The notes under the pieces are model-generated. The model saw only the letters and a program-made list of their open reading frames with translations. It ran no database searches and was not told the origin of the DNA. A DNA stretch of 64,000 bases, taken from the IMG/VR virus record IMGVR_UViG_2721755569_000006. The stretch is one strand, 5' to 3'. This stretch comes from an uncultured virus (IMG/VR IMGVR_UViG_2721755569_000006) (lineage: Duplodnaviria > Heunggongvirae > Uroviricota > Caudoviricetes). Position numbers and translations under genes: made by a program. This document shows, piece after piece, positions 45,054 to 47,551 of this stretch (its first letter is position 1; each line of letters begins with the position of its first letter).

Positions 45054-46718
45054 ATGAGTGGCGATCAGTCGAATATCTTTGAAGAGCGCGCTGAAAATCT
45101 CAGCAAGGAAGAATTGTCCGATTGGACGATGCTTACAAACAAGGATTCTTTGAACCTCCGCAAGCTGAAAGGTCCCGGAGCAAAACTGCTCATTGGACCT
45201 CGAGGTTGCGGGAAGTCCACGTTGATGAGGATCGCATATTTCCAGCTTCTTTCCGAGCGCGCGGCATTTCCCGTATATGTAAATTATTCGAGATCGATGG
45301 CTCTTGAGCCTCTCTTTCATTCCCACTCAAATGCCACACTAATATTTCGGCAATGGGTTCTGTGCAAAATTGCGAAAGAAGCAAAAGCTGCCGCAGACGA
45401 GATTGGGCTAGATTTGCCTCGCAATCTTGCTCGCATTGCAATTCAAGCCGAGAAGCTGATTATTGGACTGGAGCGTGGCGAAGTTTCCGATGACAGCGAT
45501 CTATTACTTTCCCCTTCTGAGCTTGCTGCCTGGCTTGAAGAAATTTGCAATGCTCAAGGTGTTTCTCGTGCGGTTCTTTTGCTCGATGATGCTGCTCACG
45601 CTTTCTCTGGTGAGCAGCAAGCGGAGTTCTTCGAAATATTTAGACAGCTTCGAACAAAATCGATTGCCCCCAAAGCGGCTGTGTACCCCGGAATTACATC
45701 ATATTCACCTAATTTCCATATAGGACATGAAGCAGAAGAGTTGAGCGCATGGTACGACGCTGGAGACCCTCAATACATTGACAATATGAAAAGCCTCATT
45801 TCTAGACGCTTCTCTGACGAGATGCGAGGAAAACTCGAGGGCAAGGAAGAGCAAATCGAGCTACTTGCACTTGTCGCTTTCGGAATCCCCCGAGGGTTTC
45901 TGAATATGCTGTCGGCACTTGTCGATCAAAATTCAGCGAAGGCCGGCTGGTCTGGAGTGAAGCCAATTATTGAAGCTCACGCCGCCTCAGTGCGAAAGAT
46001 ATTTAAATCCCTTTCCGTTCGTCTACCGAAATTTACGCACTTCGTCGAGGTTGGCATCGATTTGGAAAGGGCATTCATTGATCAACTTCGCCGATTTAAC
46101 ATGAATCATGTCACGCCGGGAGCGAAAACCACAATCGTAGGTATTGAAGAGCCGATCTCCCCCAATCTCGAGAGGGTTTTACATATGCTTGAATACTCCG
46201 GCGTTGTTCGGGATGTTGGTAGCCAAAGCCGCGGAAAGGGATCCTACCGAAGGTATATGTTTCATCACGCACTTGTGGCAACTGACAATGCGCTTTCGCT
46301 CGGTAGAAGTTTTTCCCTACGTACCGTTTGTGATGGGCTATCTGCAGGAGGCTCCCAATCATTAGTTCGCGCAAAGGCCTCCACTTTGCTAGGAAGCGAT
46401 TACGAAGGCCGTTGCAAGCTGAGCTTTTCGCAATGTCCGAAATGTGGAACACAACGAGCATTTTCAGATCAAAGGTACTGTATGAAATGCGGCACCGAGT
46501 TGCGCGACGGAAGTATCTATGCAGAGGTTCTTCGCCTATCTCTAACAGAATTGCCACTACCAGAGCGAAAACTCGAGGACATTATTTCCCATACGAATTT
46601 GCGCACAATTAATGACATACTGGCCGATGATCGACAGAAATTGCGCACCATCCCCTATGTCGGGCCTGTGTGGGCAAAACGCATCTATGATGCTGCAGAA
46701 GAATTTGTGAGCATGTGA
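45054..46718 (+). CDS. STAND/ORC-CDC6-like P-loop ATPase with a C-terminal zinc ribbon and alphaCTD-like HhH domain
   Basis: GPRGCGKST, LLLDD, FGIPR, CPKC...CMKC, LTELPLPER...TINDIL...LRTIPYVGPVWAKRI; AT-richer. Confidence 0.85.
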   Translation: MSGDQSNIFEERAENLSKEELSDWTMLTNKDSLNLRKLKGPGAKLLIGPRGCGKSTLMRIAYFQLLSERAAFPVYVNYSRSMALEPLFHSHSNATLIFRQWVLCKIAKEAKAAADEIGLDLPRNLARIAIQAEKLIIGLERGEVSDDSDLLLSPSELAAWLEEICNAQGVSRAVLLLDDAAHAFSGEQQAEFFEIFRQLRTKSIAPKAAVYPGITSYSPNFHIGHEAEELSAWYDAGDPQYIDNMKSLISRRFSDEMRGKLEGKEEQIELLALVAFGIPRGFLNMLSALVDQNSAKAGWSGVKPIIEAHAASVRKIFKSLSVRLPKFTHFVEVGIDLERAFIDQLRRFNMNHVTPGAKTTIVGIEEPISPNLERVLHMLEYSGVVRDVGSQSRGKGSYRRYMFHHALVATDNALSLGRSFSLRTVCDGLSAGGSQSLVRAKASTLLGSDYEGRCKLSFSQCPKCGTQRAFSDQRYCMKCGTELRDGSIYAEVLRLSLTELPLPERKLEDIISHTNLRTINDILADDRQKLRTIPYVGPVWAKRIYDAAEEFVSM

Positions 46719-47551
46719 ATATTGGGGCTCACGTCATGCTCGCAAAATACAACAACGAAGAATCGACGGTTACCATAAAATTCTCCGACTTGTGCAAATC
46801 TGTTTTCCCACCCAATGAGTCAGCAATTGACACATTTTATCGTGTTCGTGATGTTGTAATAGTCAACGCATATAAGGATCCGTTTGCCAGTGACCCGAGC
46901 CTTCGCTCAAATCTTTTGCTGCTGCTTTTTTCAGGAGCGGAGTCGTATTTTAGGAGAATAATTTCTGAAGTCTTGAGTTTTTGTCCGATCGCTGCGGAGG
47001 CCGCGGCCCAGCAGCAGGTCGCATTCGGTGCGATATCAACATTCGGAATATCAAACCTAGGATTTGCATTTTCGGACACGAAGGGCCTGACATCATCCGG
47101 CGAAATAATAAACCGCACCAAAAATATGCTGGGGATTTCCATTTCAAAAACCTCATCCATCGGGGTATCCATTGAGGAATTTGAGAGAATCTGCAATTTC
47201 AGGCACTCTATCGCACACTCCTCCGGCGAATTACTTTATACAAATCGAAGGGATCTCAAGATTGCGACATCGGGTCGCTTACAAGTTGAGATTGACAATA
47301 AAGGAATTCAGGACATCGCGCAGATAGTCGTTAATTGCGTTCGCGCATACAATAATTTTGTGGCGAATGAATTGATACAGCGGTGGTTTTCAGAAGGATG
47401 TCTTCGCGGTCGCTGGCAAAGTGATCGACGCATATTCAACAGCCACTATTCCACTTTCTCATCACGGCGAGATGGGATGCCCAGTGATTCCGCCCATGAA
47501 ATATACAAGACGGCGAAATCCAAGATAAAGATGAGAGAGAAAAATCTGTGA
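46715..47551 (+). CDS. HEPN-domain protein, putative RNase effector
   Basis: SGAESYF helix and RHSIAH (Rx4H); start overlaps the ATPase stop. Confidence 0.8.
   Translation: MNIGAHVMLAKYNNEESTVTIKFSDLCKSVFPPNESAIDTFYRVRDVVIVNAYKDPFASDPSLRSNLLLLLFSGAESYFRRIISEVLSFCPIAAEAAAQQQVAFGAISTFGISNLGFAFSDTKGLTSSGEIINRTKNMLGISISKTSSIGVSIEEFERICNFRHSIAHSSGELLYTNRRDLKIATSGRLQVEIDNKGIQDIAQIVVNCVRAYNNFVANELIQRWFSEGCLRGRWQSDRRIFNSHYSTFSSRRDGMPSDSAHEIYKTAKSKIKMREKNL

Follow-up and report, generated by a model that had tools for sequence, protein, structure and literature searches.

Two genes in the window (the whole 64,000-nucleotide stretch of IMG/VR record IMGVR_UViG_2721755569_000006) run against the replication genes of the prophage that carries them and differ from these in composition. 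This raises the question of what such a pair does there and which genome it serves. The earlier note had proposed a candidate anti-phage system, in which an ATPase carrying an RNA polymerase alphaCTD-like decoy would control a HEPN RNase. The location, relatives, partners and neighbours of the pair are considered here in turn.

Location and composition of the insert

The two co-oriented open reading frames occupy positions 45054-46718 (554 aa) and 46715-47551 (278 aa) of the plus strand. The flanking genes on either side are on the minus strand, the pair being antisense to the prophage replication genes. The GC content of the three 1-kb bins covering 45001-48000 is 0.479, 0.467 and 0.513, versus 0.651 and 0.661 in the adjoining bins, which confirms the AT-richer antisense two-gene insert initially described. 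Alignment to six related proviruses ends at 44493-44495 and restarts at 47705-47714; the foreign cargo therefore corresponds to 44496-47713. The region comprises the following features:

44460..44496, minus strand: terminator-like hairpin with U7 on the left border of the insert, belonging to the flanking phage operon (folding energy -22.6 kcal/mol, z -3.0, then UUUUUUU)
44496..47713, no strand assigned: variable cargo insert (moron) of 3.2 kb in a prophage hotspot (homology breaks against six proviruses; low GC, 0.47-0.51 versus about 0.65)
44973..45000, plus strand: weak promoter-like site, at chance level, 54 nt 5' of gene 1 (9/12 positions match)
45054..46718, plus strand: gene 1, AAA+ ATPase of the ORC/Cdc6-STAND clade, 554 aa (Pfam PF24389 and AAA_22; 784 homologues)
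46715..47551, plus strand: gene 2, HEPN protein (RiboL-PSP/Abi-like) of 278 aa if started at GTG 46715 and of 271 aa if started at ATG 46736

The cassette is missing from all 15 related proviruses, whose insertion slot is empty in eight cases and holds other cargo in seven. The nearest record, G001, is a 51.5-kb provirus carrying a 100% identical cassette. The prophage genes near the cassette include a D5_N primase, a Sak4-like protein and an HTH/excisionase-like gene, and the left-edge hairpin falls within sequence shared with related proviruses. The promoter and terminator scan of the region gave results at or below chance level (two promoter-like sites for 3.9 expected from shuffles). Repeats around the insert are limited to short pairs (12-21 nt), and none that brackets it stands out. 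No Rfam match at E <= 0.01 was obtained on the insert. When positions 38000-52000 were compared with phages by megablast, the sole match was partial, to a Ralstonia phage, and outside the cassette.

Contigs from three RNA libraries of two studies (X17/X19; X18) contain pieces identical to the cassette, at a depth of 2-7. As contigs are incapable of showing transcription and DNA carry-over is possible, no inference is drawn from these matches.

The overlapping stop and start reported for the two genes holds for one of the two possible starts of gene 2. GTG 46715 gives a 4-nt overlap (GTGA) with gene 1, whereas ATG 46736, which has a GGGG 8-11 nt on its 5' side and fits the N-termini of the closest homologues, leaves a 17-nt spacer. 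Under either start, the two genes are tightly linked.

The ATPase and its HEPN partner

The motifs and domains of the two proteins are located as follows:

45195..45221, plus strand: Walker A GPRGCGKST, residues 48-56 (G48, P49, R50, G51, G53 and K54 invariant in 26 sequences)
45576..45590, plus strand: Walker B LLLDD, residues 175-179, then conserved AAHAFS (invariance among aligned relatives)
45882..45893, plus strand: G-I-P-R, GxP or sensor-2-like motif, residues 277-280 (G277, P279 and R280 invariant in 26 aligned relatives)
46434..46490, plus strand: zinc ribbon CPKC...CMKC, residues 461-479 (Zn_Ribbon_1 match in 29/29 tails)
46524..46715, plus strand: C-terminal (HhH)2 domain with a predicted alphaCTD/Rad51-NTD-like fold, residues about 491-554
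47201..47218, plus strand: RHSIAH, Rx4H motif of gene 2, residues 163-168 (R163, H164 and H168 invariant in 31/31 partners)

Gene 1 is above the cut-off of PF24389 (E 2.5e-9, 36.9 bits for a cut-off of 27), in an alignment that spans only positions 6-58 of the 571 positions of the profile in the Pfam copy used, and of AAA_22 (28.9 bits, cut-off 27). It thus belongs with an uncharacterised bacterial family called 'ORC-CDC6-like' by Pfam and 'ORC-CDC6 family AAA ATPase' by NCBI. Its relatives carry this latter label in source databases, the matching Atlas clusters have the same name and the same length, and a precomputed PF24389 hit is found, among the matches listed, in all but one of 120 relatives. 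The top match among PDB sequences is ORC4 (E 0.0033, P-loop region only). The literature search yielded no account of the function of the PF24389 family or of its HEPN partner.

All the motifs read in gene 1 by the earlier note are present and their key residues are invariant among 26 relatives. Besides those listed above, this concerns D178, D179, A180, A181, H182 and F184 around Walker B (S185 nearly so) and C461, C476 and C479 of the zinc ribbon (CPKC 461-464, CMKC 476-479; C464 nearly so). The G277-P279-R280 motif is taken here to be the GxP/sensor 2 of this ATPase family. The attribution to STAND-type ATPases stands at the level of the clade (DD Walker B, GxP) but not for a repeat-type sensor, the best family being ORC-CDC6-like. 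Unlike STAND proteins proper (Avs, NACHT, NB-ARC type), gene 1 shows in Pfam no large C-terminal domain of the repeat or sensor kind (TPR, WD40, LRR). Against gene 1, NACHT, nSTAND3 and nSTAND5 reach E values of 0.06-0.16 only. Downstream of the ATPase part of this 554-aa protein, Pfam finds only the zinc ribbon and HHH_5. Judging from the sequence, the ATPase could also have a helical lid with sensor 2, followed by a winged helix. Residues 301-445 are the most variable part of the ATPase (mean identity 0.33, versus 0.44 for the tail).

The C-terminal tail was modelled as a compact two-hairpin helical fold of alphaCTD type across the whole domain. This (HhH)2 fold is common to the DNA-binding domains of alphaCTD (PF03118), Rad51/Dmc1 (NTD) and DisA (C-terminus), and the second hairpin of the tail resembles a canonical HhH (IPYVGPVWAKRI). 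The alphaCTD-like C-terminus claimed earlier is therefore retained as a fold, but not as a significant sequence match. RNA_pol_A_CTD matches 1/29 tails (E 0.0027) while the generic HHH_5 matches 12/29, the PF03118 profile of Pfam does not match the ATPase of the window itself, and the alphaCTD chains of the PDB reach non-significant E values of 0.26-1.3. Identity is 15-20% to alphaCTD and up to 27% to the Dmc1 NTD. The tail is at least as close to the Rad51/Dmc1 NTD as to alphaCTD and is joined to an ATPase, not to an alpha NTD.

Gene 2 encodes a HEPN protein, as the earlier note had recognised from its Rx4H motif, and falls within the RiboL-PSP/Abi-like group. The pattern C..R[H/Q]...H occurs in all of the 150 best representatives (149 RH, one RQ), with a polar residue after the arginine as in the HEPN superfamily. 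PF18735 (RiboL-PSP-HEPN) matches 6/31 partners (best E 1e-7) and the nearest Atlas structural neighbours carry the name RiboL-PSP-HEPN. The HEPN protein of the window itself is below every Pfam cut-off (PF18737: E 0.022, 15.4 bits, cut-off 26.8). Its predicted fold is all-alpha, with up-down helices resembling solved HEPN domains, and its structural matches include HEPN toxins of the HepT/MntA type. The profile of the partners has no hit among PDB sequences, and Foldseek searches of PDB and BFVD with the HEPN model produced no match with E <= 0.001; the top viral entry was an uncharacterised siphovirus protein (E 0.015). Five HEPN variants of 460-500 aa carry about 200 additional C-terminal residues without Pfam match.

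Co-inheritance and neighbourhoods of the pair

The ATPase and the HEPN protein form a conserved, co-inherited unit. In 31 loci from records of Pseudomonadota, Actinomycetota, Bacillota, Myxococcota, Acidobacteriota and Verrucomicrobiota, the HEPN partner is directly downstream of the ATPase in every case (28 intact); starting from the HEPN side, the ATPase is upstream in all six metagenome loci found. This neighbourhood survey bears out the co-occurrence on which the earlier note had made its proposal depend. In 14/31 loci, there is a 4-nt overlap between the ATPase stop and the first in-frame HEPN start. Furthermore, the pairwise identities of the two proteins are correlated (r 0.845, a value reached by none of 2000 permutations), mean identity being 0.41 for the ATPase versus 0.29 for HEPN. 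The pair is rare: it was found in one of 400 further species genomes of Pseudomonadota, where the single HEPN-positive genome has the ATPase adjacent, and in none of 400 further species genomes of Actinomycetota.

The HEPN gene has decayed in some hosts, by a deletion in locus L012 and by a 1.6-kb insertion that splits it in L015 (no Rfam match at E <= 0.01 on this insertion), with the ATPase intact in both. This decay hints at toxicity of the HEPN protein. Decayed remnants of both genes are found between IS30 copies on Piscirickettsia plasmids. The same type of ATPase also occurs with an unrelated partner gene of about 260 aa, in reversed gene order, which points to a sensor module whose effectors can be exchanged.

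The cassette is mobile cargo, often located among defence genes. The ATPase gene has a lower GC content than its own locus in 29/31 loci. A restriction or defence domain is encoded within the two nearest genes in 9/28 loci, and 14/28 have housekeeping or unknown neighbours only. Two cassettes are embedded in BREX, with the PglX-like gene on one side and PglZ on the other, and another comes after HsdM-HsdS. A Rhizobium plasmid carries the pair with a methyltransferase gene on one side and an R-M gene of type ISP on the other. Genes of Shedu, SIR2, Mrr and Schlafen type are also among the neighbours. The locus neighbourhoods revealed no third gene conserved alongside the pair.

Proposed function and comparison with known systems

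On balance, the pair is probably a two-gene, horizontally mobile, unnamed defence cassette of abortive-infection type, present here as a prophage moron. Gene 1 would encode an ORC/Cdc6-STAND-clade switch powered by ATP; its zinc ribbon, (HhH)2 tail and probably winged-helix-like middle part could bind nucleic acid and recognise phage DNA or a replication intermediate. The HEPN ribonuclease encoded by gene 2 would be kept inactive until the ATPase changes state; once activated, it would cut cellular or phage RNA and the infected cell would be stopped, which could protect against phages. In favour of this reading are the domains identified, the strict pairing and common inheritance of the two genes, their mobility, their location in hotspots and defence islands and the decay of HEPN in some hosts. 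Points against it are the sub-threshold Pfam score of the window's own HEPN protein, the 14/28 loci with housekeeping or unknown neighbours only, the lack of a match among sequenced phage records, the rarity of the pair and the fact that residues 301-445, not the tail, vary most in the ATPase.

Several observations could also suit a toxin-antitoxin-like addiction module, in which HEPN is the toxin, the ATPase neutralises it and the pair mainly stabilises its carrier element, phage defence being a by-product (e.g., of a phage shut-off depleting the ATPase). The two-gene unit is tight, with translational coupling, it is always found on mobile or foreign DNA, HEPN is lost or broken in L012 and L015 while the ATPase persists, the Piscirickettsia plasmids keep remnants of both genes between IS copies, and the structural matches include HepT/MntA-type toxins. 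However, a multidomain ATPase of 554 aa with predicted nucleic-acid-binding domains far exceeds the needs of an antitoxin and is better conserved than HEPN; its association with a different partner in the other order fits a sensor with swappable effectors, and siting within BREX and R-M operons is typical for defence genes. Such a module is thus considered unlikely. A role in the phage itself, gene 1 being an ORC-like initiator or regulator for prophage replication or lysogeny control with a helical partner as cofactor, would agree with the adjoining replication module. ORC/Cdc6 proteins bind origins, which also suits this role. It has nevertheless hardly any likelihood, as the cassette is antisense, low in GC and missing from the related proviruses, eight of which have an empty slot, most relatives are on chromosomes or plasmids without phage genes, the 50,697 sequenced phage records searched contain no match to the ATPase, and the partner bears an invariant nuclease-type motif.

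The decoy put forward by the earlier note concerns the same tail that the defence cassette would use for nucleic-acid binding. As bait for phage proteins that target alphaCTD by binding or modification, it would respond to these transcription-hijacking factors, not to DNA; their action would flip the ATPase and unleash the HEPN RNase. If this were true, the ATPase family, including the relatives with a different partner, would be a guard or decoy sensor of transcription take-over. Beyond the shared fold, nothing points to mimicry: the alphaCTD sequence matches are all non-significant, the Rad51/Dmc1 NTDs score higher and the second hairpin has the canonical HhH form. The arginine of the alphaCTD motif LDLSVR is the site of DNA contact and ADP-ribosylation; the position that HMMER aligns to it is not conserved in the 29 tails (the next one is mostly K/R). 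A mimic would be expected to track the highly conserved alphaCTD surface of the host, which the tail does not do. The bait is therefore very improbable.

If the defence cassette protects against phages, an unnamed system spanning several phyla joins the defence catalogue. The prophage slot, empty or filled with other cargo in relatives, is a clean natural experiment and could be mined for further candidates, and the pair is a tractable route to identifying the signal that an ORC-like ATPase detects in infected cells.

The statement that this is not a named system agrees with PADLOC-DB v2.0.0, in which neither protein has a system match; the best hits are mad8 (E 0.003, P-loop only) and RTasHEPN (E 0.0038). 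The pair was not found described in the literature, although the supplements of PMC12839542 and PMC3710099 might list such neighbourhoods. The RiboL-PSP-HEPN (PF18735) and AbiD/AbiF groups of PMC3710099 share with gene 2 the Rx4H motif, the polar residue after R and the all-helical fold. Table 1 of this paper (Anantharaman et al. 2013) gives RiboL-PSP-HEPN fused to endoRNase L-PSP and in operon with ParB; unlike the pair described here, the contexts given in this table do not include an ORC/Cdc6-type ATPase.

The coupling of an ATPase of the ORC/Cdc6-STAND clade to a HEPN RNase is likewise seen in the HEPN-DUF499 ATPase of Hma or 'Type-1 BREX-related' systems (PMC12839542) and in HEPN-STAND fusions (PMC3710099), where the authors interpret HEPN as a suicide effector. 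However, the Hma or 'Type-1 BREX-related' proteins are fused and accompanied by a methyltransferase and a helicase, whereas the pair consists of two separate genes, and the HEPN-fused ATPase systems carry wHTH/RRM in place of the zinc ribbon and (HhH)2 tail. HINPO, likened here by its description, also has a HEPN gene adjoining an ORC-CDC6/STAND-clade ATPase, and its authors propose that the ATPase senses the DNA of selfish elements with HEPN as effector, but it requires a ParA-iNTase component between the two that is absent here. In the type VII toxin-antitoxin HepT/MntA, the partner is a minimal nucleotidyltransferase, not an ATPase, and the HEPN toxin is about half as long as gene 2, which has extra helices. 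The parts are familiar in kind (an ATPase of the ORC/Cdc6-STAND clade, a predicted RNase of the HEPN superfamily); what is new is their assembly, as separate genes and with a zinc-ribbon and (HhH)2 tail.

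The cassette, its provirus and the cargo slot

The surroundings of the cassette are those of a provirus. Both cassette ORFs are on the plus strand, with minus-strand genes on either side.

Features of the cassette and of the provirus
45054-46718, plus strand: gene 1, ORF of 554 aa
46715-47551, plus strand: gene 2, ORF of 278 aa
34939-37763, minus strand: two tandem genes, each ParB_N fused to an N6/N4 DNA methylase (phrog_498)
38852-41146: D5_N/DUF5906 primase
42656-43531: Sak4-like AAA_24 protein
44019-44306: HTH/excisionase-like gene
59836-61215: serine recombinase, farther along the provirus
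18242-20974, plus strand: 910-aa ORF, inside a lower-GC patch
56210-56836, minus strand: 209-aa ORF, inside a lower-GC patch
58230-59041, minus strand: IS4/IS5-type transposase in two adjacent ORFs (DUF4096 and DDE domain)

The GC content of the 1-kb bins from 45001 to 48000 is 0.479, 0.467 and 0.513, against 0.651 and 0.661 in the adjoining bins. The AT-richer, antisense two-gene unit described in the earlier note is thus borne out, whereas the stop/start overlap attributed to it hinges on GTG 46715; gene 2 may start at ATG 46736 instead.

Since the alignments of six close provirus relatives to the window stop at 44493-44495 and resume from 47705-47714, the foreign piece corresponds to 44496-47713. 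On the left, this piece borders on a minus-strand hairpin with a U7 run behind it (-22.6 kcal/mol, z -3.0); the cargo therefore lies between the end of a 428-aa/324-aa gene pair and the terminator of that pair. Among 16 related proviruses collected via the 428-aa neighbour, 15 span this slot, which is empty (246-342 bp) in eight and holds other cargo of 2.9-4.4 kb, with a GC content below that of the flanks, in seven. None of the 15 carries the ATPase gene or the HEPN gene of the cassette. The cargo found there includes a 1138-aa ResIII/DEAD helicase with weak PbeA-like PADLOC matches, a PDC-S64-like protein with DUF3644 (match to the PADLOC candidate PDC-S64, E 4e-22), LprI-domain proteins, an 869-aa SEC-C-motif protein and unknowns. 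In L043-L058 the slot lies between homologues of the 324-aa gene and of the HTH gene. Lying between the last gene of a two-gene operon and the terminator of that operon, it is a variable-cargo hotspot of this prophage family. The nearest provirus record (51.5 kb, CheckV completeness 87%) carries an identical cassette (100% identity).

Contigs of the RNA sequencing run X18 and of X20, presumed to be RNA too, resemble the right flank up to the insert and diverge from the window exactly at 47713 (positions noted: 47713 and 47802), which fits relatives with different cargo and the same breakpoint. Elsewhere, lower-GC patches at 14001-21000 (0.56-0.60) and 56001-57000 (0.49) may be other foreign cargo. 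The transposase adjoins the serine recombinase and DUF2924 genes, and its two-ORF state reflects either a programmed frameshift or a broken gene.

An ORC/Cdc6-type ATPase and a HEPN protein

The ATPase encoded by gene 1 has its catalytic motifs intact and contains two small domains of nucleic-acid-binding type. It matches the Pfam families ORC-CDC6-like (PF24389, E 2.5e-9, 36.9 bits for a cut-off of 27, with only profile positions 6-58 of 571 aligned), AAA_22 (28.9 bits, cut-off 27), AAA_16 and zinc-ribbon families, as well as HHH_5 at residues 511-549, under its cut-off (E 7.7e-4). Matches to NCBIfam were limited to a sub-threshold one to the Sll1717 family and those to PADLOC were at P-loop level (best E 0.003); PHROGs gave none. 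A word-indexed search (8000 candidates scored) retrieved 784 homologues at E <= 1e-3. The 120 listed are mostly about 555-575 aa long (range 433-613), most with a query coverage of 99-100%, and some homologues are named “ORC-CDC6 family AAA ATPase” by their sources. A profile search of PDB sequences found no solved structure of a close relative, the single match being the P-loop of ORC4 (E 0.0033).

The Walker A, Walker B, GxP and zinc-ribbon motifs read earlier from the sequence are conserved among 26 aligned proteins that are 33% to 69% identical to that of the window. Invariance extends to the Walker A residues, to D178-D179 with the AAH.F that comes after them, to G277-x-P279-R280 and to three cysteines (C461, C476, C479); C464 is nearly invariant. 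Mean pairwise identity reaches 0.48 in the P-loop core and 0.44 in both the zinc ribbon and the tail; residues 301-445 are the most variable (0.33). The DD Walker B and the GxP motif, which we take to be STAND-like, agree with the proposed STAND-type ATPase, but gene 1 has no repeat-type sensor domain, and we file it in the ORC/Cdc6-STAND clade, outside STAND proper.

The tail, previously described as alphaCTD-like, was modelled from the C-terminal 115 aa of the protein, using 29 homologues (mean pLDDT 86.6; 90-95 over the last 65 residues). Foldseek returned no row at E <= 0.001 for this model. Its best rows, with rmsd of 1.7-2.7 across 52-66 columns, are Dmc1/Rad51 N-terminal domains, DisA, AF1548 and many RNA polymerase alphaCTDs. 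By sequence, 12 of the 29 tails match HHH_5, 4 match HHH and 1 matches RNA_pol_A_CTD (E 0.0027), and PF03118 (RNA_pol_A_CTD) is found on 12% of members in one Atlas cluster of gene 1 relatives. The tail profile hit five alphaCTD chains in the PDB at E 0.26-1.3, none significant. The likeness to alphaCTD thus holds for the predicted fold, but this is a general (HhH)2 DNA-binding fold. Identity to alphaCTD is 15-20%, and the second hairpin (IPYVGPVWAKRI) resembles canonical HhH.

The HEPN assignment of gene 2 is clearer from its family than from the window's protein alone, which matches HEPN_MAE_28990 in Pfam (E 0.022) and the RTasHEPN model in PADLOC (E 0.0038). Among 31 aligned partners, E76, R80, C90, R163, H164, H168, N213 and W224 are invariant, and six match HEPN_RiboL-PSP (best E 1e-7), which upholds the earlier reading of a HEPN protein with an Rx4H motif. 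With clustering at 50% identity, an exhaustive profile search yielded 447 clusters, of which 395 have E <= 1e-10. Almost all are 260-290 aa long, and the C..R[H/Q]...H motif is present in all of the 150 best. The AF2 model is all-helical (pLDDT 93.1, pTM 0.88). Foldseek found nothing significant for it in the PDB; the top probabilities (0.33) are HepT rows, followed by HEPN parts of AbiA, Csm6, LsoA, Csx1 and Las1. The neighbours of the ESM Atlas model are RiboL-PSP-HEPN and HEPN/Toprim-N clusters (TM 0.85 to 0.50). Five family members (P0148, P0159, P0160, P0215 and P0229) are 460-500 aa long, with a C-terminal extension of about 200 aa that matches no Pfam family.

Linkage of the two genes and their genomic siting

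A search of species-representative genomes gave 42 loci, including 32 real ATPase relatives, one of which ends inside the gene. In all of the remaining 31 the partner adjoins the ATPase, although some copies are decayed, and in six of six metagenome loci found through the partner, the ATPase precedes it in the same orientation; the two genes thus form a conserved unit. An intact partner ORF of 257-301 aa lies directly downstream in 27 loci, and in L031 it follows a frameshifted ATPase. The HEPN gene alone is sometimes inactivated: next to an intact ATPase, the partner is split after residue 72 in L015 (Lachnospiraceae, 6874-8470) by a 1.6-kb insertion with small ORFs only and no Rfam match, and lacks residues ~153-199 and changes frame in L012 (a Eubacterium MAG related to L015, 3304-4001). 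Both genes are frameshifted in L032, a low-coverage contig. Counted from its first in-frame start, the partner ORF shares 4 nt with the end of the ATPase gene in 14 loci and 1 nt in two; in five it begins 2-3 nt past the ATPase stop.

Pairwise identities of the two genes across 26 loci are correlated (r 0.845, reached by 0 of 2000 permutations), which shows co-inheritance but is no proof of co-evolution because the sequences are mutually related. The pair is rare and patchy, since the partner occurred in one of 400 further Pseudomonadota species genomes, with the ATPase adjoining, and in none of 400 further Actinomycetota genomes.

The pair is mobile and sited in hotspots and defence islands. 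In 29 of 31 loci the ATPase gene has a lower GC content than the locus that holds it. A neighbourhood survey covered 100 of 147 candidate flanking ORFs at 28 loci, those dropped being mainly third-nearest and shortest ORFs. Restriction or defence domains occur within the two nearest genes at nine loci. For example, the pair lies inside BREX, after a PglX-like methylase, in two Lachnospiraceae loci (in L028 ahead of PglZ), and directly downstream of HsdM-HsdS in another. The remaining neighbours of this type are Mrr, DUF4145, UvrD with SIR2 and PD-(D/E)XK, a C5-methylase with Eco29kI, Schlafen-AlbA_2 and Shedu SduA. Integrase, resolvase, transposase or primase genes are near the pair at five further loci, and the other 14 have housekeeping or unknown neighbours.

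Full-length ATPase relatives were found in seven of 72,556 plasmid records; among sequenced phage records, none has the ATPase. The relative on a Rhizobium phaseoli plasmid has an integrase, a methyltransferase and a type ISP R-M gene as neighbours, and the 349-aa partner beside it is a member of the HEPN family of gene 2 (hhalign probability 99.8). In 38 Piscirickettsia plasmids, a remnant alone lies between IS30 copies (in the P. salmonis plasmid L072, at 3115-3770). It comprises the C-terminal part of the ATPase, as a 108-aa Zn-ribbon/HhH fragment, and the N-terminal 109 aa of the HEPN protein, and has a VapBC pair and a gene for a non-specific endonuclease nearby.

ORC-CDC6-like or ATPase_2 matches are still present in three ATPase relatives that are more distant (E 1e-53 to 4e-24); two have HHH_5 tail matches, one of these also matching RNA_pol_A_CTD. 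All three have a gene of ~255-265 aa before the ATPase, not after it.

Genes upstream of the distant ATPases
L059, 4469-5236, minus strand
L060, 2129-2926, plus strand
L061, 4025-4807, minus strand

None of these genes has a Pfam match, and the L060 copy, the only one compared, has no similarity to the HEPN family (hhalign probability 0.3).

Possible role and comparison with known systems

The HEPN protein of gene 2 is strictly linked to the ATPase, and its catalytic-type motif is invariant. In the role that we propose, the ATPase would sense phage nucleic acid or a replication intermediate, and its ATP-dependent change of state would license the HEPN RNase, which would then arrest the cell. 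The main rival is that the pair acts as an addiction-type toxin-antitoxin system. It is also possible that, as the earlier note suggested, the tail is a decoy whose binding or modification by phage proteins releases the RNase; the common fold shared with alphaCTD is the one point in favour of this. A service to the prophage's own replication is unlikely.

No PADLOC v2 model matched the two-gene form with the Zn-ribbon-(HhH)2 tail, in line with the novelty suggested for it, and a search of the main texts of papers found none on the pair. The proposed phage-sensing system is a candidate whose component parts are of already known kinds, and a similar logic was proposed earlier for HEPN-DUF499/Hma and for HINPO.
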